64,000 bases of DNA from an uncultured Clostridia bacterium (GCA_934772045.1 CAKVMH010000004.1:7491-71490); one strand, 5' to 3'. Shown: positions 1,771 to 60,086, numbered from the stretch's first letter. Program-made: numbers and translations. Notes: generated by a model from the sequence alone, not told the origin.

Positions 1771-2152
1771 GTTGAGCAAGGGTAATTAAAATATTATTGT
1801 ACATAATAAAATTATGACATATTTTAATTAGCTTGCATAGAAGCAAAACAAGGAGAGCAAGAGTAATTAAAATATATTTACATACACTATATGTATGACA
1901 TATTTTAATTAGCTTGCATAGAAGCAAAACAAGGAGAGCAAGGATAATTAAAATATTATTGCACATAATAAATTATGGCATATTTTAATTAGCTTGCATA
2001 GAAGCAAAACAAGGAGAGCAAGAGTAATTAAAATATATTTACATACACTATATGTATGACATATTTTAATTAGCTTGCATAGAAGCAAAACAAGGAGAGC
2101 AAGAGTAATTAAAATATTTTTACATACACTATATGTATGACATATTTTAATT
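1771..2152. repeat. Tandem array, ~81-bp unit x ~4.7
   Basis: Unit starts (GACATATTTTAATTAGC) at 1816, 1897, 1977, 2058 and 2139. Each unit has the 12-bp inverted repeat ATATTTTAATTA...TAATTAAAATAT around GCTTGCATAGAAGCAAAACAAGGAGAGCAAG. Two alternating ~22-nt linker variants. Confidence 0.9.
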
Positions 2153-2355
2153 ACCACGCGAAAGCAAAAAAATTAATAACAACAAACCATTTGCTTGCGG
2201 TTACTATATTTGATAGGTATCATCACATTTATCCGGCAATGGTGTTGTACTTTGACATAAACAGGCCTATCCCTATTAGGGAATATCGGTGGGCAGAATA
2301 TATGCCGTTAATAAAACAAGCAAATGTTCAAATTCAGGATAAGCGCATGAAATAG
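2137..2355 (+). CDS. Hypothetical 72-aa ORF; its first 5 codons are part of the upstream repeat unit
   Basis: ORF track only. No SD and no recognisable motif. Confidence 0.25.
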   Translation: MTYFNYHAKAKKLITTNHLLAVTIFDRYHHIYPAMVLYFDINRPIPIREYRWAEYMPLIKQANVQIQDKRMK

Positions 2356-2448
2356 GCAATGCACACTAGCAACAAAAAATTATTGTTTAATTAGAATACT
2401 TTTATTAAAAATCATATATACAAATGCATGCTTTTAAAAAATGGTAAA

Positions 2449-2478
2449 GAAAAAGGGCATCAAGTGATGCCTTTTTAG
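2449..2478. terminator. Rho-independent terminator (bidirectional look)
   Basis: AAAAAGGGCAT-CAAGTG-ATGCCTTTTT hairpin flanked by A and T runs, just downstream of the minus-strand ORF ending at 2527. Confidence 0.6.
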
Positions 2479-2526
2479 TTTCAAATTAATTATGTGTTGG
2501 GTTTATATTTTAAACCTTACATTAAA

Positions 2527-7490: not shown

Positions 7491-7570
7491 TTTTTAAATA
7501 AAACGCATGAATAATTCGTCGTGAAATGATACACATTTGCAAAATAAATTCGTAATGAAATAAATAGATT

Positions 7571-8204: not shown

Positions 8205-9848
8205 ATGACAAAAACAAAAAATAATTTGTTGGTTAAATTGCTTGTTGCAGTTGCATTTGTATTGTCCGCAATTTGCATGACTGCTTGTGCAAAAGCCAAC
8301 AAAAACATTTCAAAGATTTCTGTTGTTTCTTCAACCGTTCCAGCGGAGATTGTTGTCGGCAAATTTGACGAAGCGGGCATTAAAATCAAAGTGGAATATG
8401 AAGACGGAAGTTCAGCAGAAATGGCAGTAACCACCAGTATGTTAGATGATAATGCAAAACAACTTGTAAACACAAAATCTGGCAGTTACATCATCACAAT
8501 TAAATTCCGCGGTGAAGAAACTAAAATAACAGTAAATGTTATCGAAGCAACCGAAGTTCACACTGTAAAATTCTACAACGCTTACGGTTACATGATTTAT
8601 CGTGACGACAATGTTAGACATGGCCAAGCGTCAACCCTTCCAAGCGACGCTTCAGTTGAATGCCCAGGCTACACCTTTGTTGAATGGGACAGGGCAACTG
8701 ACAATGTAACAGGCGACATTGATGTTTACGGCATTTATTACAAAGTTGATGAAACAATGACAAGTGCCCAAATGGAATCTAAATTGGTTTCAATTAACGA
8801 ACAATTGTATTCATCATCATTCACGTCAAATACTGAAACAAAGTGTTATAGTCGTAATGGTGAGGATATCACGGATTTTGTATTAAGTTCTGCTTATTCT
8901 ACACAATTTAATTATCACTATCTTTCTAATAATAGTTTTGCTACTCAACGTTTCGATGAATCTTTTATGCAATCTGTAATGGTAGAGAATGAAAAACTTT
9001 ATTTAAAAGAATATTCAAAAGAATCAGGTGCTTGGGTAGGTGCAACAACTGCCGTAGAAGATTACAATGCAGAAGTTGGATATTGGGGTAGCGAAAGCGC
9101 GGTGATTGGTGCAATAGCAAACTTTAATCTAAACGAATTGCTTGAACATGCGTCATCAACAGATACCAGCAAATACACAAATACACAAAAGACATTTACA
9201 TACAAAAAATTTACAAACGGCAAAAATATGTACAATGCTAAATTGGAATATGATTTTAACTATAATGGTGGGTTTTCTACACCTGAAAATCACGTCATAG
9301 AAATAGTTTATGATGACAATAAAATATTAAGTGTTAAGCATACAAAATTGACAGACAGTAACAAATCTGATGAAACAATATACTTTGATTATGCTGAAAA
9401 AGACTTTGAAACTGTTACTGGTGATTTGGTAATTGAAGAAGGTTTGACAAATGCAAAAGAACTTATTAGTGCATTAAAGTCTGCCGATCACACATTATCA
9501 CTTGTGTCACAATCTCCAAGCGAAACATCAACTACTTTCACATACAATAGTAGCGCAAGATGTTATGTTGGTAATGATACAGAATCAACTATACTACCTA
9601 TCATCGCTAACTTTGAAAATAACATTGATTCAACAGTAAGTTTCAGTTATTTAAAATCTAGCGATACAGAATATGAATATGAAATCCAAGTATCACTTAA
9701 TGGTAAGTTATATGAGCATGGTGAAAACTTAACAATTAAAATTAGCAATAATAAGATTACAAGATTTGTATATTATACTCCAGCCGATGAATCTGTTGAG
9801 GATAGTCACCCAAATCGATATGAACTTACTGTTGTTTATGCTGACTAA
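8205..9848 (+). CDS. Surface lipoprotein with Ig-like and Listeria-Bacteroides (InlB B-repeat) domains
   Basis: Signal peptide with lipobox-like CMTAC. HTVKFYNAYGYMIY...PGYTFVEWD...GDIDVYGIY matches the Flg_new/Listeria-Bacteroides repeat pattern. Confidence 0.8.
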   Translation: MTKTKNNLLVKLLVAVAFVLSAICMTACAKANKNISKISVVSSTVPAEIVVGKFDEAGIKIKVEYEDGSSAEMAVTTSMLDDNAKQLVNTKSGSYIITIKFRGEETKITVNVIEATEVHTVKFYNAYGYMIYRDDNVRHGQASTLPSDASVECPGYTFVEWDRATDNVTGDIDVYGIYYKVDETMTSAQMESKLVSINEQLYSSSFTSNTETKCYSRNGEDITDFVLSSAYSTQFNYHYLSNNSFATQRFDESFMQSVMVENEKLYLKEYSKESGAWVGATTAVEDYNAEVGYWGSESAVIGAIANFNLNELLEHASSTDTSKYTNTQKTFTYKKFTNGKNMYNAKLEYDFNYNGGFSTPENHVIEIVYDDNKILSVKHTKLTDSNKSDETIYFDYAEKDFETVTGDLVIEEGLTNAKELISALKSADHTLSLVSQSPSETSTTFTYNSSARCYVGNDTESTILPIIANFENNIDSTVSFSYLKSSDTEYEYEIQVSLNGKLYEHGENLTIKISNNKITRFVYYTPADESVEDSHPNRYELTVVYAD

Positions 9849-10065: not shown

Positions 10066-12768
10066 TTATTTATTTGCCATATCTTTAATCATGCAACAGT
10101 TTTTATATTTTTTGCCACTCCCGCAAGGGCAAAGGTCGTTACGTCCAATATGAACATCTTTTTTACGTGCGCTTGATTGTTCGGTTTTATTTGTTTGTCC
10201 GCCAGCAACGGGACCAACAGGGCGCTTAGGCACGATTTCAATTTTAAGTTGTGATTTAAACAATGTTTCGGCAGTGTAGTCGCGTATGTCGGTAATCATC
10301 TTGTCGAACATTTCAAAACCGTCGTTTTTGTATGCAACGATAGGGTCTTTTTGACCATAAGCCATAATGCCAATTTCATTGCGAAGGGTGTTCATAGCGT
10401 CGATGTGATCAGTCCAGAACTTATCAACAACGCGGAGCAAAATGTTACGTTCCAAAATGCTGAAATCAATATTAAGTTTTTTAACTTCGGCAATTTTTGC
10501 TTCGTAAATTTCCAACAATTTTTCATAAACATTTTGTGCAACTTGATGTGCGTCAAGCCCGTCAACAAATTCAGCAGTAACCAAATTTGTGTTTGGTGCC
10601 AAAAGTTTTGCTTCTAACTCTTTATTCAATGGTTCCAAATCCCATTCGAAGTAAGGCTTTGCTTCGTCTAAATAGTTAAGGCAAGTTTCAAACACATATT
10701 CTTTAAGCATTTCAAGGATTTGTGGGTGAATGTCCACACCATCAAGCACTTTGTCGCGTTCACCGTAAATGATTTGGCGTTGTTTGTTCAAAACATCGTC
10801 ATATTCAAGCACGTTTTTACGCATGCCAAAGTTCATTGCTTCAACTTTCTTTTGTGCAGACTCAAAGAACCTTGTTAAAATCCTTGATTGCAAAGGCATA
10901 TCTTCATTACCGCGGAAGGCGATAGCGAACCAGTTTTTCATTCTATTTTCGCCAAACCGTTGTGGTAAGTCATCTTCCAATGAGATGAAGAAGATACTTG
11001 AACCTGGGTCACCTTGACGGCCAGCACGACCACGCAACTGGTTATCAATACGACGTGATTCATGGCGTTCAGTGCCAAGAATGTGAAGCCCGCCAAGTTC
11101 AATAACCTTTTTCTTTTCTTCGTCAGTAACCTTTTTAAAATCTGCCAAATACTGTTGATATTTTTCCTTTAAAACCTTTTCTTCGTCGGTTAAATCTGCG
11201 TTGTATGAAGTGATTTTTTCCATAACGGCAGGCTCAACATTTTCGTTAAGCATTTTTTGTTTTGCCAAAAATTCAGGGTTACCACCAAGCAAAATATCGG
11301 TACCACGACCTGCCATGTTTGTTGCAATTGTAACTTGACCAACACGACCAGATTGTGCAACAATTTGACCTTCCAATTCATGGTTTTTAGCATTCAAAAG
11401 GTTGTGTGGAATGCCAAGTTTTTTAATTTCACGGCTTATGCGTTCACTTTTTTCAACTGACGCAGTACCAACCAAGATAGGTTGACCTTTTTCATATTTT
11501 TCCTTAATTTCTTCAACAATAGCGTTATATTTTGCTTGTTCGGTGAAGAAGATAAGGTCTTGTTCATCAACACGTTGAACCGGCTTGTTTGTAGGAATGG
11601 TTACAACGTCAAGGTTGTAAATTTTGTTAAATTCGCTTTCTTCGGTTTTTGCAGTACCAGTCATACCGCTAAGTTTTGAATAAAGTTTGAAGTAGTTTTG
11701 AAGGGTAATGGTTGCAAGTGTTTTGTTTTCTTCATTGATTTTAACACCTTCTTTTGCTTCAATTGCTTGGTGCAAACCGTCGCTGTAACGCCTGCCTTGC
11801 ATGATACGGCCAGTAAATTCATCAACGATAAGCACTTCATCGTTTTTAACAATGTAGTTGATGTCGCGTTCCATAATAAAGTTAGCACGAAGGGCATTGT
11901 TGATGTGGTGGTTGATTTCAAGGTTTTGAATATCACTCAAATTTTCAAGTTTGAAATAAGTTTCAGCCTTGCTTACACCAGTTTCGGTTAAGCGAATTTG
12001 TTTGTGTTTGATGTCGATGTCAACATCTTCTGGTTTCAACCTTTTTGCGAAATTGTCGGCAACAGAGTAAAGGTCGGTTGATTTGCCACCAGCGCCAGAA
12101 ATAATCAGCGGTGTGCGCGCTTCATCAATTAAAATAGAGTCCACTTCGTCCACAATACAGAAATTGTGCCCACGTTGCACTTTGTATTCTTTGCTAACTT
12201 GCATATTGTCGCGCAAATAGTCAAAGCCAAATTCATTGTTTGTGCCGTATGTGATGTCGCATTCGTATGCCTTTTTCTTTTCGGCTGGTTGTTGCCCAGA
12301 AAGGGTGCAACCAATAGTTAAGCCCAAGAATTTGTACAACTTGCCCATCATTTCCGCTTGTGTGGTTGCCAAGTATTCATTGACGGTAATTACATGCACA
12401 TTTTTGCCTGTAAGTGCGTTCAAATAAACCGCGGTTGTTGCAGTTAAAGTTTTACCTTCACCTGTGCGCATTTCTGCAATACGACCTTGATGCAAAACAA
12501 CACCACCAATAAGTTGAACATGGAAGTGACGCATGCCTAAAACACGCGTTGCAGCTTCACGCACAACAGCAAAAGCATCTGGCAAAATGTCGTCAGTTGT
12601 TTCACCGCTTGCAAGCCTGTCTTTAAAAATTTGTGTTTGGCTTTGCAATTCGCTGTCGTTCATGGCAGAATAATAATCTGCTTTATCTTCAATTTGTTTT
12701 ACAATTTTTTCAATTTTGTTAAGGCTTCGTTTGTTGTCCGAAGCGAATAAGTAAGAAAATAATCCCAT
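10066..12768 (-). CDS. secA: Preprotein translocase ATPase SecA
   Basis: Start moved to MGLFSYLF (ATG at 12768, SD AAAGGA). MRTGEGKTL Walker A, DEVDSILIDEARTPLIISG, C-terminal zinc motif CPCGSGKKYKNCC. Confidence 0.95.
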   Translation of the reverse strand: MGLFSYLFASDNKRSLNKIEKIVKQIEDKADYYSAMNDSELQSQTQIFKDRLASGETTDDILPDAFAVVREAATRVLGMRHFHVQLIGGVVLHQGRIAEMRTGEGKTLTATTAVYLNALTGKNVHVITVNEYLATTQAEMMGKLYKFLGLTIGCTLSGQQPAEKKKAYECDITYGTNNEFGFDYLRDNMQVSKEYKVQRGHNFCIVDEVDSILIDEARTPLIISGAGGKSTDLYSVADNFAKRLKPEDVDIDIKHKQIRLTETGVSKAETYFKLENLSDIQNLEINHHINNALRANFIMERDINYIVKNDEVLIVDEFTGRIMQGRRYSDGLHQAIEAKEGVKINEENKTLATITLQNYFKLYSKLSGMTGTAKTEESEFNKIYNLDVVTIPTNKPVQRVDEQDLIFFTEQAKYNAIVEEIKEKYEKGQPILVGTASVEKSERISREIKKLGIPHNLLNAKNHELEGQIVAQSGRVGQVTIATNMAGRGTDILLGGNPEFLAKQKMLNENVEPAVMEKITSYNADLTDEEKVLKEKYQQYLADFKKVTDEEKKKVIELGGLHILGTERHESRRIDNQLRGRAGRQGDPGSSIFFISLEDDLPQRFGENRMKNWFAIAFRGNEDMPLQSRILTRFFESAQKKVEAMNFGMRKNVLEYDDVLNKQRQIIYGERDKVLDGVDIHPQILEMLKEYVFETCLNYLDEAKPYFEWDLEPLNKELEAKLLAPNTNLVTAEFVDGLDAHQVAQNVYEKLLEIYEAKIAEVKKLNIDFSILERNILLRVVDKFWTDHIDAMNTLRNEIGIMAYGQKDPIVAYKNDGFEMFDKMITDIRDYTAETLFKSQLKIEIVPKRPVGPVAGGQTNKTEQSSARKKDVHIGRNDLCPCGSGKKYKNCCMIKDMANK

Positions 12769-24262: not shown

Positions 24263-24623
24263 TATTTGTGTCAAAAATTATAGATAAAATAACCAGTTGT
24301 TTATTCAGTTGAATGTTTTTCGTCTATATTTTTATAATTTTATGGCAATTTAGATTTGCTTAGCTACAAAACAATGCAGGCATTATCCATTTTTAAATAA
24401 AAACATTGTTCAAATTGACTTAGCTTTGATAGAACAAATCTTCCGCAATATACTGGCATCAGATGAGGTAAGTTTTTAAAGCTAGTTCCTTGTCAAAACA
24501 TTTTATACGATTTCAGATTTGCTTAGGTAAACTATTTTCTTTTACAGAATCTTGTGTACATAAATAAACTTTGCAAAACTAATTTTATAAAAAAATGCTT
24601 GACTGACGTCAAACACTTGTTCT

Positions 24624-24700
24624 TGGTAGAGATGAGTGGACTCGAACCACCGACCCCCACCTTATCAGGGTGGTGCTCTAACCTGCTGAGCTACATCTCT
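24624..24700 (-). tRNA. tRNA-Ile (anticodon GAU), CCA encoded
   Basis: Reverse complement AGAGATGTAGCTCAGCAGGTTAGAGCACCACCCTGATAAGGTGGGGGTCGGTGGTTCGAGTCCACTCATCTCTACCA folds as a cloverleaf with anticodon loop CTGATAA. Confidence 0.95.
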
Positions 24701-24830
24701 ATATTAAATTGTTATGTTTTAGTGAGTTCATCTCTCAAACTCACCCAGATAAGGTGGTAACCCACTTATAAGGCAATCGCAAGCGATTATGCCTTGGCGT
24801 TCGCATGAAACTTCGTATCATGCTCGGCTA

Positions 24831-24865
24831 CAGGGTGGTGCTCTAACCTGCTGAGCTACATCTCT
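24831..24865 (-). pseudogene. Exact 35-nt copy of the tRNA-Ile 5' half (5' end through anticodon nt 34)
   Basis: 24831-24865 is identical to 24666-24700. It lies 165 bp upstream on the minus strand. No matching 3' half follows it. Confidence 0.9.
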
Positions 24866-25033
24866 TCGTCGCAATTCGCCTTTTAGCGAGTTTGCTTCTA
24901 GTTATCGCAAACGTCCGCTTGTTAGGCGTTTGCTCCTCTACAAAGTGGCAACAAAGTTTCCCCTTTGTGAACCCCTTGATTTAAAGAGGTGTATTTTGGA
25001 AACGGAAAACTAAATTTCACATCTCAAAATATT

Positions 25034-25049
25034 TTTGGTGGAGAATATC
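25034..25049 (-). repeat. Copy of the tRNA-Ala 3' end (acceptor 3' strand + CCA)
   Basis: TTTGGTGGAGAATATC at 25034-25049 equals 25140-25155, 106 bp downstream of the real 3' end. The adjacent hairpin CTGTTT...AAACAG gives a minihelix-like shape. Confidence 0.75.
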
Positions 25050-25141
25050 TGTTTGCAATAAATTACATAAACAGAATTCAACCACAAATGTTCTATGAAT
25101 TTGGCGAACACTAATTATGTTCGCCGTCTTCCTATAACATT

Positions 25142-25218
25142 TGGTGGAGAATATCGGATTCGAACCGATGACCCCTTGCTTGCAAGGCAAGTGCTCTAGC
25201 CAACTGAGCTAATCCCCC
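25142..25218 (-). tRNA. tRNA-Ala (anticodon UGC), CCA encoded
   Basis: Reverse complement GGGGGATTAGCTCAGTTGGCTAGAGCACTTGCCTTGCAAGCAAGGGGTCATCGGTTCGAATCCGATATTCTCCACCA. G3:U70 pair present. Confidence 0.93.
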
Positions 25219-28120: not shown

Positions 28121-28192
28121 CTACTGTATTTGACTGGTTGGAGTTATTCTAAATATAGTCCCACGCTGTTCATGGTGGGCGGCGTCAAAACG
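28121..28192 (-). pseudogene. Relic duplicate of the last 23 codons + stop of the MBL-fold hydrolase gene
   Basis: Translates RFDAAHHEQRGTIFRITPTSQIQ* versus the real RLDIAHHEQRGTIFRITPTSQKQ*. Offset is 199 bp. No start codon, and a stop lies a few codons upstream. Confidence 0.8.
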
Positions 28193-28319
28193 CTCACATT
28201 TGGTTAATTGCTAGTAAACAACGCAATTTACGCTTTATGTTCGGTTTTTCCTTAACCCCAACAAACAAAAATGTTTGATTGGGGACCCCAGTCGACATCA
28301 CCCGTCTTACTCCAATAAC

Positions 28320-32540: not shown

Positions 32541-32711
32541 GAATTGCCACGCCTAAAACTAAAATTTGCCAAGGCATTGGCAAATGTAAACCCTTAGGCG
32601 GGCAATTCCTGCTAACAAGGGACACCACTTAACGTGTTTTCCCTTGTTTATCCTTTCCGAATTAAATAGGATACGGTTGAAAATGCCACGCCTAAAACTA
32701 AAATTTGCCAA
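32541..32711 (+). repeat. Structured 3' region: long imperfect hairpin plus a 28-nt exact direct repeat 139 bp apart
   Basis: GGAATTGCCACGCCTAA...TTAGGCGGGCAATTCC (32540-32601) with inner TTGCCAAGGCATTGGCAA. TGCCACGCCTAAAACTAAAATTTGCCAA at 32545-32572 and 32684-32711. Confidence 0.8.
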
Positions 32712-36684: not shown

Positions 36685-36768
36685 AAAATCTATTCACAAT
36701 TCAGCGAATCCAGGGTTTTGCAATAAAACCCTGTCGAACTGAATTGTTTGACGACTTAGACGAGTAGA
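36656..36768 (+). repeat. 83-bp near-tandem duplication carrying the rpoB 3' end (last 8 codons + TAG)
   Basis: 30-nt exact CTGAATTGTTTGACGACTTAGACGAGTAGA at 36656-36685 and 36739-36768. Between the copies is the hairpin CAGGGTTTT-GCAAT-AAAACCCTG. Confidence 0.9.
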
Positions 36769-36813: not shown

Positions 36814-37053
36814 ATGGATAAAATTAATGAAGAACAAGTTACCGTACATTTAACAAGGCATGATTACCGCCTGCTAAGCCAATCAAATAGGCCAAATTAT
36901 ACACAATATGATGGTCAAAAAGTTACACGAGATAAGTGGGACGAAATTATGAATTACTTACAAAAACTTAACGATAAGTACTGGAAAAAACATAACAAAT
37001 GCCCAATTTATGTGGAAACAGGTTTGATTGGACAAGAAGGTATATCTAATTAA
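36814..37053 (+). CDS. 79-aa protein of unknown function encoded between rpoB and rpoC
   Basis: Strong SD TAAGGAG 7 nt upstream. No terminator between it and rpoC (35-nt gap). No recognisable motif. Confidence 0.7.
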   Translation: MDKINEEQVTVHLTRHDYRLLSQSNRPNYTQYDGQKVTRDKWDEIMNYLQKLNDKYWKKHNKCPIYVETGLIGQEGISN

Positions 37054-40000: not shown

Positions 40001-40660
40001 GTTGTTAAAGGTCAAACAGAAGAAAGTTACATTCTTCCATTTGGTTCAACAATCAAAGTTAAACAAGGCGATGTAATCACCCCAGGTACAGCACTCACCG
40101 AAGGTCCATTGAACCCACGTGATGTATTGCGTACACGCGGTGTGAAAGCCGTACAAGAATACTTACTTAACGAAGTTCTTGAAGTTTATAAATCACAATC
40201 TGTTGCTATTAACGCAAAACACTTGGAAATTATTATTAAACAAATGCTTCGTAAAGTTAAAATTGAAAACGCTGGCGACACAGATTTGTTACCAGGCGAC
40301 ATTGTTGATATCCGTGTTTACGAACAAGCTAACCAAAAGGCTTTGGCAGAAGGTGGTGTTCCTGCAACTGCTAAACGTGAACTTCAAGGTATCACAAAAG
40401 CAAGTTTGACAACTGAAAGCTTCTTGTCTGCTGCATCATTCCAAGAATCAAGCAATGTGTTAACAGAAGCTGCCTTGAAGGGTAAAGTTGACCACTTGAT
40501 TGGTTTGAAAGAAAATATCATTATCGGTAAGATGATACCTGCAGGTACAGGTGCACCTGCTTATCGTAATGTCCTTCCAAAACAAGTTAAGGAAGATAAC
40601 AGCCTATTCACAAACGAAAATGTCGACATGAAATTTGACGACATTGATGAAGAAGAATAG
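37088..40660 (+). CDS. rpoC: DNA-directed RNA polymerase subunit beta'
   Basis: 1190 aa with zinc motif [20 protein letters not shown] and catalytic NADFDGDQM. Confidence 0.98.
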
Positions 40661-40794
40661 AACTTAAACAAAATTTCATGCAAAAGGTGGCTTAAAAAGG
40701 GTCACCTTTTACATCAATTTGACGACATTGATGAAGAAGAATAGAACTAAACAATATTTCATGCAAAAGGTGGCTTAAAAAGGGTCACCTTTTT
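40632..40794 (+). repeat. 84/83-bp tandem duplication: rpoC last 8 codons + stop + terminator hairpin, two copies
   Basis: 40632-40710 versus 40716-40793 are near identical (1 indel, 1 substitution). Each carries AAAAGGTGGC-TTAAAAAG-GGTCACCTTTT; the second is followed by a longer T run. Confidence 0.9.
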
Positions 40795-43297: not shown

Positions 43298-46200
43298 ATG
43301 AAATCATTTACAAAGTATTTTAAAGTAATCTTATGCTTTATGGCGTTCGCTGTGGCAAGCTTTTTGTTCGCTTTTGCACCAACATTGTCCAGCTACGCAG
43401 CACTTCAAACAAGCATTAGTGGCTACAATATGGCTATTAAAGCAGTTAAAATGCCACGCAAAGCCTATGTTGATGAAACAACAGGTGCACAAAGTTTGCG
43501 CGTGCCACTTCTTACAACAGGCAATTCTTGGCAAGACACTGCTAAATACACAATCCGTGTAATTGACCCAAGCTTCACAGCTCACGATTTTAATGTTGAT
43601 GGTGCAAATGGCTCCACAAATGAAGCTGATGCTGGTTATTTCACAAAAATTAAAGTTAATGGTACAACAGTTGTTAAATCAACAGATGAAGGCTACGACA
43701 CCGCAAGCGGTGACGAGTTTGTTTCAATCAGCGCACTCAACAATGGTAAATATGACATTATTTACATTATGCAAGAGGGCGATGGTGAAAACGCTAAACG
43801 TTATTATTCTAACACCTATTCAATTACAGTTGAAAATGTTAGCTATAGTCTTGATTTTTCAATTCAAACAGAAGGCGAGTCAAAAGGCTTGAAAGTTTTG
43901 TTGCCTGAAACAGTTGCAAAATCAAATCAAGACAGCGCAAAAATTGCTTTACCAAAAGCAAATGTTAAAAACAACAAGTCAAAAGAATGCCTTGAAAATG
44001 TAAGCGTTGCTCCAAAAGTTTTCAACGATTATGGTAGGGAACTTAGCGAAGGCGAAATCTTCAAAAAGGAAGGGGACAACTATTATTTGTGCCCAACAAC
44101 TGAAGGTAAGTATACAATTGAATACACTTACGCATATGGTAACAACCCACCTAAAAAGTCTTTCACAATTGAAGTTGTTGACGGTTTTACAAAGCCAACT
44201 TCAAGTGATTTGACAATTGCAACTCCTACAATGCCTAGTGTTGAATTAGGTCAAAAAGAAGTTAAGTTACCAGATGTTACAGTTAGCAACAAAACAACAG
44301 ACGATGTTGAGCACAATGTTGTTTCAATTGAAATTAGCAAAGGTAGCATTTCAAAGAAATTAACAAATAATACATTTACTTTTGACATGACTAGGGAATT
44401 CTTTGAACAGTCAAAATATGACAATATGTTTGGCGCGTGGTCAGTTAAGTATACAATTCAAGATGCATATGGCAATGAGAAGTCAATTACGATGCAACTT
44501 GAAAATGTTGTAGACAACACAAACCCAGACGTATTCATGGCTTATGACTATGATATTGACACTACAACAGGTTTACCAGTTAATGCTGACAAAATTGACA
44601 CAACAGTTGTAACTGAACTTAAACCTGAATATGGTTACAATGAATTGTATTTCCCAGCAATTTACGCCAAGGATAATGTAACTGCTTACAATGAGTTTAT
44701 TTTTGTGCGTTACATTCAAAGCACACGTACAGACACAATTTACTACATTGATAATGTAATTGAAAAAGATGGTGAACGCCATGTTATCACTGCTGAAACA
44801 GATGCTGAACTTGCAAGCCAAATGAATGCATCTGGCGACGCAAATATTGGTTCACAAAACAAAGCTGTTAAATTTGATTTCAATGTTGAAGGCGAAACTG
44901 AAACAGAAAAGAATGCTAAAAAATCAGAACTCTCTGGCGAATATAAATTAGGTTATATGGTTATAGCAAAAGATAAGACCAAACAAAAAAGCTACTTATA
45001 CTCAGCAAACACAACCATGTATACCTTTGAAATTTTGCCTACACCAACAAGGGATATCACAACTTCAGTTGATCACACTGTTGAAATTAACAACATTAAA
45101 GATGGCATTTCAATTGCGAGCGATGGCAAACTTTCAGTCAACATAACAGCAAATGAAAAGAAACGTGGCGATTCAACAACTTATGCTGATAAACGCCTTA
45201 AAACTGCAGTGTTCTATTACTACACAACAACATCTACAAATATTAAAGGCGACATAAAATCAATCTTTGACAGCGTTAAAACTGACAGGGCAACAAACCA
45301 TGTTTACTATGGTAGTGAACACATCATTGATAGCGAAGCATTCATAACTGCAATGAAGGCTAAATTTACAGGCTTTGAATATGCAGAATTAAAAAATAAA
45401 AACAATTATGAATTGACTCTTAAAGATTATCAATCAAGTTATGGCAAACAAGCACATGTAATTGCAATTTCTATTGACGACGATGGCAACATTGCACTTG
45501 CAGACAAGCTTTTGAACATTAAGGACATGAACGATGTTACAGCCCCAAGTTGGACTTTGCTTTCAGGTGTTGGGCATGAACATAGTTTCACTGATACAGC
45601 ATTAGAAGTTAAACAAGGCACAGTTATTGAACTTCCTGACATCGAATTCACTGATGATGATAAGACATTAAGCATGAATGTTACTTACTATGTTAACTCA
45701 CCTATTAATGAATTAACAGGTTTTGATTATAAGGCGCCTATTGGTAAAAATTACAAAAATGTAAATGGCAAATCAATTGTTTATGGTGGTCAAATTAAAA
45801 CTGACATTGTAGGTGAATATCATGTTGTATATTCAGCAACCGATGATGCTGGCAACACAACATATGTGTACTTCACATTCAAAGTTACACCAGATGCTGA
45901 CCCAATTTTGAAAGTTTCAGCGACAGGTGAAGATATTACAGTTTCAGGTGCAAGTTCAATTACCGGCGAAATCGGTATGCAAGTTAACTTTGACGCAGTT
46001 TTATGGTCAAATGATTTAACACAAAACTTAACGAACGAATCTGGCGTTGTAATTGACTATACTGTTGAAGATGGCGGTAAGAGGTGGAGCACTGGTGATG
46101 ACGCAACAAGCTTCATTTTCAGTGAACAAGGTGATTACTACATCACTTTCACAGCAAAATATGGCAGTTACAATATTGAATCACAAAAATTCACAATCAG

Positions 46201-47188
46201 CGTTTCTCGTCCTGACCTTGAATGGAATGAAACATTGAATGAAAAAGATTACAGTTATGCTCCTAAAGATAGTTGGGTTTCATTACCTGATTTAAGTGCT
46301 TCTCAAGGCGATATTAAAGCCAAAGTTGAATTGAAAGTTACTTTCAAAGGTGAAAGCCAAACTGTTAAAAAGGAAATTATAAACGGAACAACTGTTTGGA
46401 GATTTAAAACAAACGCAACACTCACAGGTGATTACAAAGTTGAATACACAGCAACAACTGCGTACAGTTCAATTAAGAAATCATTTACAATCAAAGTAGG
46501 CGATAATGTTCCACCAATTATCAGTATGGAACATGTTGCAGATTTAGCACAAGACCTTATTTACGATGGCAAGACAAGCATTGAATACAAAATCTACTTG
46601 TATCCAACATTGACATCAAGTAAAGAACGTCAACTTAAAATCACAATCACAAATGGTAGTGATGTTAAGACTTACGATACAAAATTAAAGATTACAGATA
46701 AAGACGAAAACGGCGAAGTTAAAGAAATTAACTGGAACAGTTTGACCGTTGAATTGATGAATGGCAGTTCAACTATGAGTGCTAGCGCAAGCAGTGATCA
46801 AAGGTACACTAAGACATACAGCATTAGTTCAACTGGTGATTATAAATTAGTGCTTAAAGTTACCGACAGCAATTCAAACACAACAACTAAAGAAATTAAG
46901 TTCACAGTTAAAACTGAAACTGAAGTTGAAAAGAAAAATGATACAGTTGTAGGCGTTGTTCTCATCGTATTGTCATTGGTTGTTCTTGCTGGTGTTATCT
47001 TGTTCTTCGCTTTAACCGGCAAAGGCGAGGGTGGTTCAAACAAATCTAAATCTTCAAAACAAGTTAAAACAACAAAATCAGTTGAAGAAAACAAGGTTGA
47101 AGTTTTAGAAGATACAAAAGTAGCTGAAGATGTTGAAGTTGAATCAGAAGCTCAAGAAACTGAACCAAAATCTGGCGATGTTGAATAA
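43298..47188 (+). CDS. Large surface protein with repeated Ig-like (DUF5011-like) domains, C-terminal TM anchor and acidic tail
   Basis: Signal peptide. Recurrent D-x-T/N-x-P-x motifs (DNTNPDVF, DVTAPSW, GDNVPPII). TM helix VVGVVLIVLSLVVLAGVILFFAL near the C-terminus. Confidence 0.85.
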   Translation: MKSFTKYFKVILCFMAFAVASFLFAFAPTLSSYAALQTSISGYNMAIKAVKMPRKAYVDETTGAQSLRVPLLTTGNSWQDTAKYTIRVIDPSFTAHDFNVDGANGSTNEADAGYFTKIKVNGTTVVKSTDEGYDTASGDEFVSISALNNGKYDIIYIMQEGDGENAKRYYSNTYSITVENVSYSLDFSIQTEGESKGLKVLLPETVAKSNQDSAKIALPKANVKNNKSKECLENVSVAPKVFNDYGRELSEGEIFKKEGDNYYLCPTTEGKYTIEYTYAYGNNPPKKSFTIEVVDGFTKPTSSDLTIATPTMPSVELGQKEVKLPDVTVSNKTTDDVEHNVVSIEISKGSISKKLTNNTFTFDMTREFFEQSKYDNMFGAWSVKYTIQDAYGNEKSITMQLENVVDNTNPDVFMAYDYDIDTTTGLPVNADKIDTTVVTELKPEYGYNELYFPAIYAKDNVTAYNEFIFVRYIQSTRTDTIYYIDNVIEKDGERHVITAETDAELASQMNASGDANIGSQNKAVKFDFNVEGETETEKNAKKSELSGEYKLGYMVIAKDKTKQKSYLYSANTTMYTFEILPTPTRDITTSVDHTVEINNIKDGISIASDGKLSVNITANEKKRGDSTTYADKRLKTAVFYYYTTTSTNIKGDIKSIFDSVKTDRATNHVYYGSEHIIDSEAFITAMKAKFTGFEYAELKNKNNYELTLKDYQSSYGKQAHVIAISIDDDGNIALADKLLNIKDMNDVTAPSWTLLSGVGHEHSFTDTALEVKQGTVIELPDIEFTDDDKTLSMNVTYYVNSPINELTGFDYKAPIGKNYKNVNGKSIVYGGQIKTDIVGEYHVVYSATDDAGNTTYVYFTFKVTPDADPILKVSATGEDITVSGASSITGEIGMQVNFDAVLWSNDLTQNLTNESGVVIDYTVEDGGKRWSTGDDATSFIFSEQGDYYITFTAKYGSYNIESQKFTISVSRPDLEWNETLNEKDYSYAPKDSWVSLPDLSASQGDIKAKVELKVTFKGESQTVKKEIINGTTVWRFKTNATLTGDYKVEYTATTAYSSIKKSFTIKVGDNVPPIISMEHVADLAQDLIYDGKTSIEYKIYLYPTLTSSKERQLKITITNGSDVKTYDTKLKITDKDENGEVKEINWNSLTVELMNGSSTMSASASSDQRYTKTYSISSTGDYKLVLKVTDSNSNTTTKEIKFTVKTETEVEKKNDTVVGVVLIVLSLVVLAGVILFFALTGKGEGGSNKSKSSKQVKTTKSVEENKVEVLEDTKVAEDVEVESEAQETEPKSGDVE

Positions 47189-50741: not shown

Positions 50742-51230
50742 ATGACAAAAGCTAAATCTGGTTTTTTAAAAGCTGGGGCAATCTTCGGCATAATTTGGGC
50801 AGGTTTCTTTGCAATATTCGGCATGACGTTATTTACAATTCAAGGTGAACTATCGCATAAATATATAATTGAAGATATTATGGAGTACAAGAAAACAGAA
50901 TACGATACTATTAATAATTTTGATGGCTCAATTACATATAAGTTAACAAAAGATGGCGAAGTAAAGGAAATTAAGGGCGACCAATTAGACGATATCATTG
51001 AATTATCTAAAAAAGTTTTAACAGTCGGTGGCATTTATGTGTTAGCATTTTCAGTTGCTTCACTTGCACTTTCAATTCTAGTGCTTGTAAACTCAGAAAA
51101 GGAAAAGGCAAACAAAGGTTTAATAATTTCATTACTTTGTGTCAGCGTTTTCTCCGCCAACATTTTAACCTTAGCATTTATGATTGTTGCTTTGTGTTTA
51201 AAGGATAAAAAAGTAGAAGAAGTGAAATAG
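50742..51230 (+). CDS. Small membrane protein (DUF4064-like?)
   Basis: Four hydrophobic helices. SD AGAGGTG. Confidence 0.7.
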   Translation: MTKAKSGFLKAGAIFGIIWAGFFAIFGMTLFTIQGELSHKYIIEDIMEYKKTEYDTINNFDGSITYKLTKDGEVKEIKGDQLDDIIELSKKVLTVGGIYVLAFSVASLALSILVLVNSEKEKANKGLIISLLCVSVFSANILTLAFMIVALCLKDKKVEEVK

Positions 51231-51560
51231 AAGCAACATCTAATGGGAAGTGGAACGACCTTTAAATTGTTGCTTTGTGTTTAAAGGATAAAAAAGTAGA
51301 AGAAGTAAAATAGAAGCAACATCTAATGGGAAGTGGAACGACCTTTAAATTGTTGCTTTGTGTTTAAAGGATAAAAAAGTAGAAGAAGTGAAATAGAAGC
51401 AACATCTAATGGGAGTGAAACGACCTTTAATTTGTTGCTTTGTGTTTAAAGGATAAAAAAGTAGAAGAAGTGAAATAGAAGCAACATCTAATGGGAGTGG
51501 AACGACCTTTAAATTGTTGCTTTGTGTGTAAAAGATAAAAACTAGCAACAATTTAATAAT
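51183..51560 (+). repeat. Tandem array, 83/82-bp unit x ~4.5, unit = last 15 codons + stop of ORF 50742 + ~35 nt
   Basis: Unit starts (ATTGTTGC) at 51183, 51266, 51349, 51431 and 51513. The final unit is degenerate. The 8-bp stem AAGCAACA/TGTTGCTT spans each junction. Confidence 0.92.
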
Positions 51561-57600: not shown

Positions 57601-58266
57601 CATAGCAACGCACATCAAAACATCTTGCATTTCTGCGTCTTCTTTGTAGAGGTAATGTACATCGTTTGTCGCAACAAGTTTAATGTCGAACTTTTTAGAG
57701 TATTCCCTCAATTTTTCATTGACAATTTGCTGTTCAGCAATGCCGTTTTGTTGAATTTCAAGGTAAAAATCGTCTTTAAAAAGATTTTTGAACCACAAAA
57801 TGAGTTCTTCTGCTTTTTTATATTGTTCTTGAATAATCAATTTAGGAATGTCACCAGCCAAACAAGCCGACAAACAAATTAAACCTTCATGGTACTTTTC
57901 AAGGGTTTTGTAGTCAATCCTAGGCTTGTAATAAAAACCATCACGGAAGGCAATAGTGTTCAGTTTGCAAATGTTTTTGTAACCTTGCTCGTTCTTAACC
58001 AAAATTATAAGGTGAGAGCGTTCTTGCTTGCCAGTTTTGTTGTAAAGGTCTTCTGCGACATAAAATTCCGTGCCAAAAATTGGTTTAATGCCTTCTGCCT
58101 TGCATGCGTCAAAAAAACGGGTGGAAGCGTACATATTGCCATGGTCGGTCATCGCAATTGCAGGCATGCCGTATTCTTTTGCTAATTTAACCGCTTTTTT
58201 AATGCGCGTTGCACCGTCAAGCAGTGAAAATTCAGTGTGTAAATGCAGATGAACAAAAGGTTTCAT
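54640..58266 (-). CDS. dnaE: DNA polymerase III alpha subunit, DnaE type
   Basis: N-terminal PHP domain FVHLHLHTEFSLLDGA, PDFDVDF catalytic motif, OB fold near the C-terminus. Confidence 0.96.
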   Translation of the reverse strand: MKPFVHLHLHTEFSLLDGATRIKKAVKLAKEYGMPAIAMTDHGNMYASTRFFDACKAEGIKPIFGTEFYVAEDLYNKTGKQERSHLIILVKNEQGYKNICKLNTIAFRDGFYYKPRIDYKTLEKYHEGLICLSACLAGDIPKLIIQEQYKKAEELILWFKNLFKDDFYLEIQQNGIAEQQIVNEKLREYSKKFDIKLVATNDVHYLYKEDAEMQDVLMCVAMQKFVDDPDRLKFPTNELYFKTYDQMLEGLPNDEEALDNTIEIANKCNYSFEYGKYHFPSYTPEGGYNAEVGATPKEYLMNLVDKGVKEKYGEYTDEIRERIATEIGVIEKQGFIEYFLIVWDYINAARKMGISVGPGRGSGAGSLVAYTMGITNIDPLKFELFFERFLNTERVSAPDFDVDFEDVRRGEVIDYVRRKYGDDRVVHIIAFGTMKAKNAIKDVGRVLRVPYSLCDKITKIIPMYKSPILPKAFGFHVPKPGDKDFGTVYAVPELVEMYNTDPQVKRVVDIALKVEDFPRQCTTHPCGVIIGAGVLEDFVPLSRNGEDITTQYEGVDMEHLGHLKMDFLGLRNLTDIKGTINLVKKTRNIDISFEHASYDDPNVFKLISTGNTEGIFQIESAGFKKFLKELQPTCIEDIVAAVSLYRPGPMDSIPRYVHNKHHPEDTTYDHPILEPILKVTYGCIVYQEQVMKICQAMAGFTLGQADMIRRAMGKKKMEEMLKWKDAFLYGREAYTDDHGKYSPKIIGAINNGVSEETANKIWNEMEAFASYAFNKSHAAAYSLITYQTAYLKNYYLPEFITSTLNNRITNIEKLKHYIAYAKSEKIQVLPPDINLSETYFSTDGKVIRFGLAALKNVGVGVIDEIIEERKANGDYKDLADFIWRSNSQALNKRCIESLIKAGAFDCFGRPRSQLMAVYSIMVDRAIERKKKSMNGQMDLFGDFIEDTNLIEENEYPNINEYVNTVKLQYEREISGTYLSGHPLDGFMDTIKTFTFDSSMIPSESLDDEEDNGTAELEDFGPEEELYNGLKNGDVVTCGGVITEIKTIQTKTGSKMAFLTIEDLTGSFEAVLFNKSYDKFKDEIQKDTLVAIKGRFSVRDGKRPSITVDSIEQLSDASTQDPSEPETQETEIEIVKPKKLCLRYNMSDGILHQAVKKILDGYVGIDTVCVKDTATNKAYKLTQGVMVRQSLIFELETILNKDDIVVIEG

Positions 58267-59144
58267 TAGTTTTCTCCTTTATGCTTTTTGTAAATATCAA
58301 TAATCTTGTCAAGGCGGTATTTTATGCCAGCACGGCTGATGTCTTTATTTAATGCTTTCTGCAATTCACTGAGTGGACCATAAGGGTTGGCATAACGCAG
58401 TAAGGCAATTTCTTTTAAATTTTCGTCTAACAAATCTAAATTGTCGGTGTCGATAAAATAATTGATTGCTTTCATTTGCTCGGCACTGGCGTAAAGCGTT
58501 TTATCAAGGTTAGATTCAAAACAATTGTTCTGCCTGTTTGCCGTGTTACGAATTTCGCGCACTGCAAGGCTGTTTTGCACATCAAGGGCAGTGTACTTGG
58601 CACCAAGAAGCACCAAAAAGTCACAAATGATGTCACTATGTTTTGTGTAAAACACAACACCATTTTGGCGTGGCTTTGATTTAAAATCTAAATTAAACTC
58701 AACTAGTAATGATTTTATAAAGTTTTGACTTTCTGGACGCACAAAAAACTCTAAGTGATAGCCTTTTGAATTTTGATTGTTGTCCAACTCGCAATTAAAA
58801 TTGCCAACCAACAAAAATGCGGTTTTAAGGAGAGTAAGCCTGTCGCAATCGGTTACAAAAAGCGAATAATTAGGCTTATCGTCGATATTGCAATCAACCA
58901 AAATGCTTCGAACGTCGCCGGAAAGCGCCAAAAAATCTTTTAAACTGTTAACAATAATATTAGGGTAAAAGTTGTTTACAATTTTAACAACTTTTTCACA
59001 AATAAAGTCGGTGCTAGAAATTATTATACGGGAATTTGCAATGTCCACAAGCCCGCAAAAATCAATAACAACCGATAAAAAAGCATGGCTACAACAATTG
59101 TTAGACGGTATAGAATTAATGATTTGTTGTTTATAGCCAAGCAT
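58266..59144 (-). CDS. whiA: Sporulation/cell-division regulator WhiA
   Basis: Start at MLGYKQQI (AAGGAG upstream). LAGLIDADG-like N-terminal domains. C-terminal HTH region LSELQKALNKDISRAGIKYRL. Confidence 0.88.
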   Translation of the reverse strand: MLGYKQQIINSIPSNNCCSHAFLSVVIDFCGLVDIANSRIIISSTDFICEKVVKIVNNFYPNIIVNSLKDFLALSGDVRSILVDCNIDDKPNYSLFVTDCDRLTLLKTAFLLVGNFNCELDNNQNSKGYHLEFFVRPESQNFIKSLLVEFNLDFKSKPRQNGVVFYTKHSDIICDFLVLLGAKYTALDVQNSLAVREIRNTANRQNNCFESNLDKTLYASAEQMKAINYFIDTDNLDLLDENLKEIALLRYANPYGPLSELQKALNKDISRAGIKYRLDKIIDIYKKHKGEN

Positions 59145-59145
59145 T

Positions 59146-59922
59146 TTAACTCCTTTTCTTGCGTTTTTCCTTTTTGAATTTTGGTAAATCGTTATAATTG
59201 ACAATGCAACTATCTGGTAACCTTAACCTTAGGGCTGCTTCCAAGCCTAAATGACATTCGCCAACGCGTTTGCAGTGGTGTGCATCACTGTCAATCACAA
59301 ATTTACAACCTAATTGATAGCATGTCAAAATTTCTTTATCGCTCATGCCAAGGCGTTTGCCGTTAAGTTCAATCAATGTGTTTGTTTCTTTTGCAACACG
59401 CGCAACCTTTTCAACGTCAACTTTACATGCGTGGTTAAGGTGAGTGATGATGTCAATGTCATATTTTCGCATTGCGTTTATGTAAGCGTTAGTGTTCTTT
59501 TCACGCTGACGTTTGCTTGTGTGGTGGAAGATTTCACACATAATGTTTTTGATAACAAACTTCCATTGTTCACGTGTGCTTGTCGATTTAACAAACCTGT
59601 GAAAACCGCACAAAACAATGTCCAAATTGTCGTAATCGGACTCCACAATATCAATGTCACCTTGGCTACTTATCAAATTTGCTTCAACGCCAAGCAAAAC
59701 ATCGATAGGGTAACGCTCTTTGGCGTCTTCAATGTCCGCTTTAAGTTGTGGAATATCTTTGCGCCTAATGCCATAAAGTTTTTGGTTAAAACCATGGTCA
59801 GTAATTGCAATTTGCCTAAGCCCTTTTTGATAAGCGCAACGCACATTTTCTTCCACGGTTGATTTGCCGTGGTTGTTGCGCGAATATTTCGTGTGGGTGT
59901 GATAATCTGCCAAAATAGCCAT
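59146..59922 (-). CDS. PHP-family metal-dependent phosphoesterase
   Basis: MAILADYHTHTKYS...ITDHG PHP motifs. Confidence 0.85.
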   Translation of the reverse strand: MAILADYHTHTKYSRNNHGKSTVEENVRCAYQKGLRQIAITDHGFNQKLYGIRRKDIPQLKADIEDAKERYPIDVLLGVEANLISSQGDIDIVESDYDNLDIVLCGFHRFVKSTSTREQWKFVIKNIMCEIFHHTSKRQREKNTNAYINAMRKYDIDIITHLNHACKVDVEKVARVAKETNTLIELNGKRLGMSDKEILTCYQLGCKFVIDSDAHHCKRVGECHLGLEAALRLRLPDSCIVNYNDLPKFKKEKRKKRS

Positions 59923-60086
59923 AATAAACTCCTTTTGAAGGCTAGTTTGGCTTAATCTGCCAAAATAGCCATAATAAACTCCTTTTTGATGGCGATTTGG
60001 CCTAATCTGCCAAAATAGCCATAAATAACTCCTTTTGATGGCGATTTGGTCTAATCTGCCAAAATAGCCATAATAAACTCCTTATG
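59903..60086 (-). repeat. Tandem array, 50-bp unit x 4: SD + ATG + first 6 codons of the PHP gene (three upstream copies end in a stop)
   Basis: Unit starts at 59904, 59954, 60004 and 60053. Mini-ORFs ATGGCTATTTTGGCAGATTAR at 59952-59972, 60002-60022 and 60051-60071 (minus strand), each 6 nt after AAGGAG. Confidence 0.92.

Follow-up and report, generated by a model that had tools for sequence, protein, structure and literature searches.

Why do the spacers between genes in a small bacterial genome repeatedly hold extra copies of the adjacent gene ends? The question is raised by a 64,000-nucleotide (nt) stretch of DNA from an uncultured Clostridia bacterium (GCA_934772045.1 CAKVMH010000004.1:7491-71490), called the window below, in which the ends of rpoB, rpoC, several other protein genes and two tRNA genes recur in the neighbouring DNA. 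Literature searches did not find this pattern of gene-end duplications described. The repeats are locus-specific, and five of them are tandem arrays that behave as minisatellites. With about even confidence, we attribute the duplications to hairpin-guided template switching during replication, followed by array dynamics, under purifying selection. An earlier note on this DNA (the original prediction) had listed most of the repeats; two observations are added here, namely that hairpins with inverted gene-end copies define the boundaries, and that a new structured element is fused to gene-end copies.

Repeats were located using Tandem Repeats Finder and two self-alignment scans of the window. 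The sensitive scan detected 10 local, independent direct-repeat loci with a score of at least 16, compared with 0.1 expected from block shuffles, and 9 of the 11 repeats listed earlier lie far above chance. The five tandem arrays have periods of 81, 83, 83-84, 82-83 and 50 bp, with 1.9-4.7 copies and 90-97% matches. Four non-tandem pairs are spaced 165 bp (tRNA-Ile), 106 bp (tRNA-Ala), 199 bp (MBL-fold hydrolase gene, MBL below) and 139 bp (a cysteine-rich open reading frame, ORF). In what follows, A stands for a duplicated gene end, B for the spacer that separates two copies and E for a structured element of ~106 nt. The repeats and their source genes are as follows.

1537/1604: 24-nt motif present twice, 67 bp apart; not in the original prediction
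1774-2153, plus strand: array of 81 bp x 4.7, 90% matches, upstream of and into ORF 2137-2355
24624-24700, minus strand: tRNA-Ile(GAT) gene, source of the copied 5' half
24831-24865, minus strand: tRNA-Ile copy, 35/35 match to nt 1-35, 165 bp upstream of the gene
25034-25054, minus strand: tRNA-Ala 3'-end copy, 106 bp downstream of tRNA-Ala (25142-25218)
28122-28181, minus strand: MBL gene-end copy, last ~19 codons and stop; terminates at the stop and adjoins the 3' end of E
28290-28391, minus strand: true 3' end of the MBL gene (ORF 28320-29123) with a 30-nt linker
32542-32711, plus strand: pair at the cysteine-rich ORF, 31 nt, 139 bp apart; 28 nt exact at 32545/32684
36656-36768, plus strand: rpoB end, A-B-A with copies at 36656/36739, 30 nt exact, period 83 bp
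40632-40793, plus strand: rpoC end, last 8 codons, stop, 3' untranslated region (UTR) and intrinsic terminator, 1.9 copies, period 84/83 bp
51183-51541, plus strand: membrane-ORF array, 83/82 bp x 4.3, 96% matches
59903-60088, minus strand: PHP array, 50 bp x 3.8, 91% matches, at the 5' end of the PHP-domain gene (59146-59922)

Most of the original prediction was borne out in place and period. This applies to the array of ~81 bp x ~4.7 (its ORF 2137 is putative), the tRNA-Ile copy, the tRNA-Ala 3'-end copy at 25034-25049, the MBL end copy 199 bp downstream, the rpoB end, the rpoC end at 40632/40716 with a period of 84 bp, the membrane-ORF array and the PHP array, predicted as 50 bp x 4. At the cysteine-rich ORF (32334-32540, 68 aa), the 28-nt exact repeat stood but its straddling of the gene end did not, as the pair starts 2-5 nt past the stop at 32540. 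Two other proposals fell to chance level: the "echoes" of the recR end at 7513-7568 (plus strand) score below 14, a level also reached by shuffles, and the ~30-nt pair ~163 bp apart (24337/24500, within 24337-24529, plus strand; 24/30 matches) likewise scores below 14, within the shuffle range. Self-comparison of the window gave no cross-locus matches among the five arrays, each unit being a copy of its own gene end. The claim that the unit sequences are unrelated and form no single family thus holds for the tandem arrays, but not for the MBL and tRNA-Ile pairs, whose spacers hold the E family. A CRISPR array was ruled out, as both the gene-end part and the intervening part repeat within the arrays.

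Loci fetched for comparison are labelled with L numbers (such as L084). Same-region loci were recovered from human-gut metagenome assemblies (Hadza, Nepal and others) through exact-protein look-ups; a scan of metagenomes with RpoB yielded only 2 useful loci, and population sampling therefore came from the look-ups. The same structures recur in separately made assemblies of other samples (L001, L099-L104, L108-L115). An assembly artefact is unlikely as the source of the repeats, and we give next to no probability to the idea that short-read metagenome assembly made or enlarged them. The 83-bp array does show contig breaks inside it (L003, L109, L115) and scaffold N gaps (L002, L103, L104), so some copy-number differences could be collapse, and exact copy numbers from these short-read contigs are to be taken with care. 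However, the explanation fails for the 30-70-nt pairs, because A-B-A pairs are below read length, are identical between assemblies of different samples and assemblers, and recur across species; array variants differ in unit composition as well as in unit number, and orthologous structures are present in other species.

The repeats are also unevenly distributed among relatives. Among all fetched loci, non-coding or edge repeat loci number 26 in 474 kb of the clade versus 9 in 867 kb of outgroups, and a distant relative (L116) has no such repeats in its syntenic 20 kb. Judged from its sequence, the host is a reduced-genome gut member of the Christensenellales, family UBA1242, 'Candidatus Onthoplasma'-like: in an RpoC comparison, the window falls among uncultured Clostridia metagenome-assembled genomes labelled 'Candidatus Onthoplasma' or Christensenellales. 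UBA1242 comprises gut bacteria with genomes of about 0.7-1 Mb (2025 paper, PMC12306168). Pfam agrees with the gene names used here (AddA-like helicase-nuclease, RecR, MBL-fold hydrolase, PHP domain). Four large ORFs have no Pfam match (8205-9848, 547 aa; 26244-28037, 597 aa; 43298-47188, 1296 aa; 62238-63179, 313 aa).

How do the tandem arrays change with time? In the array at 1774-2153, each unit consists of a 48-nt hairpin (TAATTAAAATAT...ATATTTTAATTA) and a 33-nt spacer (fold z = -5.0), and the final hairpin overlaps the initial 17 nt of putative ORF 2137-2355 (72 aa, no Pfam match), where metagenome annotation calls a gene. Unit numbers are 4.7 for the window, 2.7 for L107 and 1.7 for both L105 and L106, with clean edges and differing unit variants. 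The membrane-ORF array repeats the last 15 codons and stop of a 162-aa ORF followed by 37 nt, and its last unit is diverged. In strain L111, 98-99.7% identical to the window, the whole of this array is gone and the first A is joined directly to the downstream flank, so that the membrane protein ends in KDKN rather than KDKKVEEVK and is 5 aa shorter (157 versus 162 aa). Homologues in other species retain KDKKVEE-like ends; the long C-terminus is therefore ancestral, and L111 represents a deletion between copies. The PHP array, absent from the distant species L116, has upstream units that each contain a mini-ORF, MAILAD plus stop, together with a ribosome-binding site. The sibling strain L114 keeps both the 83-bp and the 50-bp arrays with the unit variants reshuffled. 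Its PHP gene (L114 18405-19442) is called as 345 aa versus 258 aa in the window, and since the extension crosses the 49-50-bp array, unit variants can alter which upstream frames are open.

The two RNA polymerase genes show the same behaviour between species. At the rpoB end, A consists of the last 8 codons, TAG and 1 nt, and the 53-nt B holds an inverted partner of the first 9 nt of A together with a conserved hairpin. Orthologues have periods of 83 bp (L005; also L006, where the second copy is decayed) or 87 bp (L004 and L054, A-B-A), L084 has A-B-A-B-A (87 bp, 2.2 copies, 100% identity) and L051 has 2.4 copies of 86 bp. Copy number ranges from 1.3 to 2.2-2.4 between relatives in these short-read assemblies, and the duplication is not present in the more distant relatives compared. 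The two rpoC ends match over 79 nt at 97.5%; the duplication is 85% identical in L054, decayed in L006 and absent from L004 and L005, and the L004 end looks like a recombinant of the two L054 copies.

The rpoB copies evolve in concert. In the window, L005, the L004 group and L051, the downstream copy carries the same species-specific synonymous changes as the last codons of the gene, which means that the copies have been homogenised or regenerated within lineages; in L006, the downstream copy has drifted and no mirroring is seen. The MBL pair compared with that of L084 shows shared changes plus copy-specific ones. In L051, the stretch past the last rpoB copy is a diverged copy of B (similarity p < 0.002). 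Such decayed outermost units, at L051 rpoB and at the membrane ORF, fit a tandem origin in which the end unit escapes homogenisation.

Several small features lie in or beside these spacers. Small repeats of a second family, TGTCATTCTGAGCGAAGCGAAGAA, stand in both orientations past AddA (window 1530-1563 and 1597-1630, inverted at ~1686-1712 and 1745-1756) and downstream of rpoC in sibling genomes (L005 9708; L006 9748 and 11615-11640). A third motif, CATACCGAG...GAGTGTATCTTT, is recurrent in L005 and L006. Between rpoB and rpoC lies a 79-aa ORF without a Pfam match (36814-37053, plus strand), an unusual insertion in the rpoBC operon; a similar ORF occupies the same spot in L005, L006, L047 and L061 and is not found there in L004, L054, L051 and L013.

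What places the boundaries of the duplicated segments? In the 3'-end cases, a short inverted copy of a segment from the gene's last ~30-45 nt sits just past the stop codon, which puts the stop in the loop of a stem-loop. The stem arms are CTGAATTGT / ACAATTCAG for rpoB, CATGAAATTT / AAATTTCATG for rpoC, TGTTGCTT / AAGCAACA for the membrane ORF, and TTACTCCAA / TTGGAGTAA plus a second arm for MBL. All four genes whose 3' ends are duplicated showed a significant inverted repeat linking the gene end to the DNA downstream, versus 1 of 50 other window genes (p = 0.005 for rpoB, < 0.005 for the 10-nt rpoC repeat and 0.025 for MBL). A general presence of stop-codon hairpins on all genes was rejected, as only the duplicated genes carry them. 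In most cases, the copied segment has its inner edge right at the 5' arm of this stem (combined boundary p = 7e-7, the loci being not all independent), and the same coincidence was judged by eye at the cysteine-rich ORF of L016, L021 and L025. The PHP array is the mirror image: the start-codon region pairs with an inverted copy upstream, and the ribosome-binding site lies in the loop. Fold z scores of the repeat regions range from -2 to -6.6. Since the inner edges lie at the 5' arms of inverted repeats, the duplication junctions are at hairpin bases, which is the signature expected of template switching at structured DNA.

On this basis, the following course of events is proposed. The last codons of a gene, or the first ones for the PHP gene, would pair with the short inverted copy just outside, with the stop or start codon in the loop. 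A nascent strand stalled at the base of one hairpin could then re-align at another by slipped-strand misalignment and re-copy a segment of 50-200 bp, with the 5' arm of the gene-end stem-loop as its start. As soon as a second copy is present, the two could misalign or exchange unequally, which would expand the array (A-B-A to A-B-A-B-A), contract it, delete it or homogenise it, while the outermost unit decays. Selection would clear events that break genes, and the survivors would be those in spacers and over gene or tRNA ends. The junction partner in the MBL and tRNA-Ile pairs may be E's closing stem, as one more hairpin base.

We infer the template-switch step itself, together with a raised rate in this lineage, for example through loss of single-stranded DNA (ssDNA) exonucleases or of flap processing. 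Loss of ssDNA exonucleases in E. coli reportedly raises RecA-independent expansion and deletion of tandem repeats as well as quasi-palindrome template switching (work of the Lovett laboratory), and yeast rad27/FEN1 mutants accumulate duplications of 5-108 bp. Loss of either function raises such events and would be unsurprising in a reduced genome. AddAB, RecR, UvrC and DnaE are encoded nearby, in the window and its flanks.

The conserved hairpins also admit a reading in terms of RNA function, to which we assign a low probability. The inverted segment past the stop could have two alternative partners, the downstream copy and the coding copy, the latter being masked by terminating ribosomes, and so act as a translation-coupled switch of termination or mRNA stability; the doubled terminators could be fail-safe devices, and the mini-ORFs could tune PHP translation. 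Consistent with this, the rpoB A-B-A structure is kept in at least 5 species, its B hairpin shows compensatory changes (CAGGGTTTT/AAAACCCTG, CAGAGTTTT/AAAACTCTG, CAGCCATATTT/AAAATGTGGCTG), and L006 has compensatory T>C and A>G changes in the stem enclosing the rpoC stop. The middle arm is able to pair with either flanking copy (loops of 29-38 nt), the second rpoC terminator has the stronger T-tract, and every upstream PHP unit combines an ATG and an in-frame stop with a ribosome-binding site. However, 8-10 nt suffice for the pairing, yet 26-35 nt stay identical, and template switching at hairpin arms also yields seemingly 'compensatory' changes. Copies have been lost without visible compensation (rpoC in L004 and L005, the membrane ORF in L111) and the L006 rpoB copy has decayed; such frequent loss among close relatives speaks against the copies being necessary. 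Copy number ranges from 1.7 to 4.7. The same genes carry plain terminators in distant relatives, and the tRNA fragments have no evident role.

The non-tandem pairs raise the further question of what lies between their copies. At the tRNA genes, the tRNA-Ile copy begins precisely at tRNA +1 and adjoins the 3' end of E, and the tRNA-Ala copy comprises the T-stem 3' strand, the acceptor strand and CCA plus 2 nt (16 nt exact at 25034-25049, 19/21 overall). tRNA-Ala(TGC) and then tRNA-Ile(GAT) lie 441 bp apart within 24624-25218 (minus strand). The usual place of such a pair is the 16S-23S spacer; the 64-kb window has no rRNA gene. A permuted tmRNA in the tRNA spacer was rejected, its 13.8 bits against a gathering score of 47 being chance level, and ARAGORN found no tmRNA. 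The MBL copies, which take in ~19-23 codons and the stop (28122-28192 versus 28321-28391, 199 bp apart), match over 71 nt at 85%, 57 nt at 89.5% and 45 nt at 93%, and the pair is orthologous in L084, where the boundary has a 13-nt inverted repeat. The MBL linker repeats the gene end in condensed, inverted form, and the two make a hairpin with the stop codon at its tip.

At the cysteine-rich ORF, the first copy precedes an inverted version of itself, with which it forms a long hairpin (z = -6.6). Independent duplications of this gene's 3' end are present in L016, L021 and L025, with periods of 109-178 bp, and in L019. The encoded Cys/Gly-rich hydrophobic peptide of 64-70 aa is conserved just upstream of rpoB (window 32334-32540, plus strand; L016, L017, L019, L021, L025) and is internally repetitive (...ILLICNCGCK.DPCLLIIILLLLCGCGCG...). 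Its 3' end occurs twice more downstream in L016, as variants that stay in frame, GCGCGNTQNNGCGC versus GCGCGNQGNAGCGC. The idea that copies beside E are small ORFs was rejected, as L025 has an in-frame ATG with a ribosome-binding site and L016 and L021 do not.

Several spacers all align to a single element, E: those of the MBL pair in the window and in L084, of the tRNA-Ile copy, of a strain-specific tRNA-Gln 3'-end copy (in L106, against L105) and of the cysteine-rich copies in L016, L021 and L025. It consists of a 5' hairpin, often with GGGGWCCCC, the motif WAAGGAGCAAWCG, an inner hairpin and a closing stem ending ...TTGCGACG.

24866-24975, minus strand: E copy in the tRNA-Ile spacer, 78.7 bits, E-value 3e-18; motif AGGAGCAAACGC, two covarying helices, 3' end GGCGAATTGCGACGA
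28182-28289, minus strand: E copy in the MBL 3' spacer, 96.6 bits, E-value 4e-23; GGGGTCCCC hairpin
L016 1390-1497 and 1560-1658, L021 340-437, L025 1596-1698, L106 20224-20324: other E copies
L015 9833-9940, L006 11649-11750, L035 12470-12797, L032 5771-5875 and 10923-11131: other E copies

A covariance model found 27 copies of E in 982 kb, some of them in outgroup families or more distant Christensenellales (L032, L035); only two are in the window, and none is in the five tandem arrays. Searches with nhmmer likewise hit E at several loci in more than one species. In the model-fitted alignment, 92% of cells are paired versus 68% in shuffles and 33-51% with the partners slid, and 12 of 13 pairs show compensatory changes. 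RNAalifold recovered the same two helices from an independent MAFFT alignment. Rfam gave no match for E: the standard scan passed only two tRNAs, and permissive searches of both E regions remained at chance level. A scan of viral contigs for E also found none. In 9 of ~16 copies, the 3' end of E adjoins either a whole tRNA or the copied end of a neighbouring gene or tRNA. In L035 and L032, several copies stand in tandem between a promoter-like site and tRNA-Leu, ending 3 nt before +1. Two convergent copies flank a 25-nt centre in L106 (20224-20470) and L015 (9833-10068), and the L106 centre reproduces the final 25 nt of tRNA-Gln exactly. In L105, this segment is missing and a truncated E stands in its place; the two loci differ by ~300 bp including part of E, the L106 locus ending inside the difference, and a search with AddA homologues gave no same-species protein to extend the L106 insertion. 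E may be a tRNA-leader RNA, a 3'-UTR RNA or a repeat element.

E brings in the possibility of insertion, which we consider possible but unlikely as the origin of the duplications. It says that E, and perhaps other hairpin spacers, are non-autonomous mobile DNA that lands past the gene-end stem-loop and duplicates the preceding 25-70 nt; A-element-A would form first, and repeated insertion or amplification would give the arrays. The dispersed, conserved and structured character of the family, which extends to outgroup families, agrees with this, as does the joining of its 3' end to nearby gene- or tRNA-end copies. The copies end at the stop codon, as expected for an insertion point just past the stop, and the 9-mer GGGGWCCCC is confined to such spacers among all fetched loci. 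In L016, the cysteine-rich-end copies are 100% identical over 44 nt, whereas the adjoining E elements are ~60% alike, and the L105/L106 difference contains the 3' part of one E, the 25-nt tRNA-Gln 3'-end copy and a second, inverted E. Nevertheless, the five tandem arrays carry no E, and copies in L006, L015 and L032 stand without an adjacent gene-end copy. The linker between the true gene end and E is locus-specific: it repeats the local gene in inverted form, and so does not travel with the element. Terminal inverted repeats are lacking in E, its flanking duplications vary from 25 to 71 nt, and we know of no transposition chemistry that produces target duplications of such variable length. 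No transposase, integrase or reverse transcriptase domain was detected among the genes of the window or of 20 kb of flanks, and the L105/L106 difference may be either an insertion or a deletion.

The exact ends at tRNA genes call for two further explanations. The first, which we regard as very unlikely, is that the repeats are attL/attR remnants left at tRNA and gene 3' ends by integrative elements that were later deleted. The blocks of identity at att sites classically sit at mature tRNA ends, and three copies end there, namely that of tRNA-Gln in L106 (25 nt, from T-loop to CCA), the 3' one of tRNA-Ala and the 5' half of tRNA-Ile; the protein-gene copies finish at the stop codon, and the form (A-B)n-A resembles tandem integration. 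Against this, a genome of less than 1 Mb (PMC12306168) would have to provide a separate integrase specificity for each of at least 8 different targets, and the window and 20 kb of flanks encode no integrase. The 53-nt spacers, each holding an inverted local gene end, are too small for elements, and the arrays change by whole units between near-identical strains.

The second, for which we see very little chance, is that fragments of RNA (tRNA 5' halves cut at the anticodon, tRNA 3' ends, ribosome-trimmed mRNA) were reverse-transcribed and inserted nearby. Copy edges do fall at tRNA +1, at nt 35 in the anticodon, at the CCA end and at the stop codon, the source genes (rpoB, rpoC, tRNAs) are probably highly expressed, and the rpoC unit finishes in the terminator T-tract. 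The copies, however, are in direct orientation and 50-200 bp from their source, like local DNA events, the units contain untranscribed or non-terminal sequence, the tRNA-Ala copy runs 2 nt past CCA, and the window lacks a reverse transcriptase.

Do the duplications favour gene ends? The original prediction asked for their placement to be compared with random placement, and this was done in the window by simulating random duplications of 50-199 bp and discarding those wholly inside a gene. Among the tolerated duplications, the share that crosses the end of a gene or tRNA is 40% at 50 bp, 56% at 83 bp and 80-85% at 165-199 bp. In the data, 7-8 of 10 loci straddle gene ends and 0 of 10 lie wholly within a gene, the window being 85% genic; as 40-85% of tolerated events straddle in the simulation, this number is expected. 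The frequency of straddling is that expected under selection. The null offered at the outset, frequent short duplication plus selection, is the best-supported account of the five arrays, given their copy-number change and this simulation.

The shared period is a separate matter. The four independent arrays of the 80-84-bp class form a real cluster in this window, as had been proposed; the probability of clustering at 81-84 bp is about 1e-4 to 4e-4 for the five arrays only and 0.008-0.017 with all 11 local repeat loci, both calculated post hoc. Orthologues have periods of 80-87 bp, and L016 has an unrelated 86-bp pair. The three 3'-end units have a common layout, a ~50-nt stem-loop about the stop codon and then a second hairpin, which may partly explain the common unit size of ~83 bp. 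Two more repeats near twice this length had been claimed, but a relation of 163/165 bp to 2 x 83 was rejected: the 163-bp pair is at chance level, and the 165-bp pair is non-tandem and E-linked, its spacing being unrelated to 2 x 83 given that E occurs only twice in the window and in none of the arrays. Helical phasing was given no weight either; 50, 81-84, 106, 165 and 199 are roughly multiples of 10.3-10.5, and 67 and 139 do not fit.

Several observations weigh against template switching. At 5 or more independent A-B-A loci (rpoB, MBL, the cysteine-rich ORF in L025 and in L016, tRNA-Ile +1), the copy finishes 0-4 nt from the stop codon or, for the tRNA, precisely at the mature end. Random breakpoints do not predict such precise ends, and we have to invoke homogenisation that would persist only beside a constrained copy. 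The L016 pattern of identical gene-end copies beside dissimilar E elements would be better suited by independent insertions than by a duplicated unit, and the frequent abutment of E on gene-end copies (9 of ~16) suggests an active role of the element. A period of 81-84 bp common to four independent arrays is not predicted by slippage alone. A-B-A is kept across species at 4-14% RpoC divergence, which is unexpected for useless DNA in a genome of less than 1 Mb, and the stretch past the second rpoB copy is not significantly similar to B in the window (p = 0.25) or in L004 (p = 0.87). The precise ends, the L016 pattern and the E fusions lend some weight to the insertion reading and, more weakly, to att remnants and RNA-templated copying. 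In a further reading, of low probability in our estimate, the gene-end copies would be products of a dedicated hairpin-guided copying process instead of random survivors: E or smaller hairpin modules would insert past gene-end stem-loops with a long target duplication, or an ~82-bp ruler (8 helical turns), set by a protein or by structure, would determine how much DNA is re-copied. If true, it would be an undescribed way to remodel gene ends in reduced genomes and could supply spare 3'-end cassettes, as hinted by the in-frame cysteine-rich variants of L016.

If hairpin-guided template switching accounts for the pattern and the pattern holds genome-wide, this uncultured host-associated bacterium, with its genome of less than 1 Mb, would be a natural example of that process shaping gene boundaries. 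The process alters protein C-termini, as in the membrane protein of 157 or 162 aa depending on the strain, doubles terminators and makes upstream mini-ORFs, and the arrays are usable as strain-typing loci. It also offers a testable link between lost repair functions and minisatellite birth. The ~83-bp clustering, if it survives genome-wide, could reveal a length-setting step in replication or repair. E, present in tRNA leaders and 3' UTRs of Christensenellales and without an Rfam family, merits its own study.

Finally, the repeats can be compared with known systems. Diversity-generating retroelements also place a near-copy of a gene 3' end a short distance downstream; they were rejected here, as the copies are 26-71 nt long, involve housekeeping genes and tRNAs and carry mismatches that are not adenine-specific (in the MBL pair C>T, A>G, T>C, T>A and others), and the window has no reverse transcriptase. 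attL/attR sites share direct repeats of a gene end that stop at a tRNA end or stop codon, and differ in that here only 53-166 nt of locus-specific spacer lie between the repeats, with many targets and no integrase. Like REP/BIME, BOX/RUP/SPRITE and Correia/NEMIS elements, E is dispersed, structured and ~100 nt long, lies in 3' UTRs and tRNA-operon spacers and sometimes occurs in tandem or convergent pairs. Unlike them, it has no sequence or Rfam match, consists of a 5' hairpin and two nested covarying helices rather than a simple palindrome, and is often fused at its 3' end to a nearby gene-end copy. The arrays resemble mycobacterial interspersed repetitive units (MIRUs; units of ~46-101 bp, intercistronic, over stop or start codons) and variable-number tandem repeats in unit size, location in spacers and at gene ends, strain copy-number polymorphism and unit-wise gain and loss. 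MIRUs, however, are one dispersed sequence family, whereas the arrays here copy their own local gene end and share no sequence. The mutators of E. coli lacking ssDNA exonucleases (ExoI, ExoVII, RecJ, ExoX) and of yeast rad27/FEN1 show the same size range, whole units gained and lost in RecA-independent style, copies of adjacent sequence in either orientation, and junctions at hairpins. Those cases are laboratory mutator phenotypes, whereas the pattern described here would be natural and lineage-wide.

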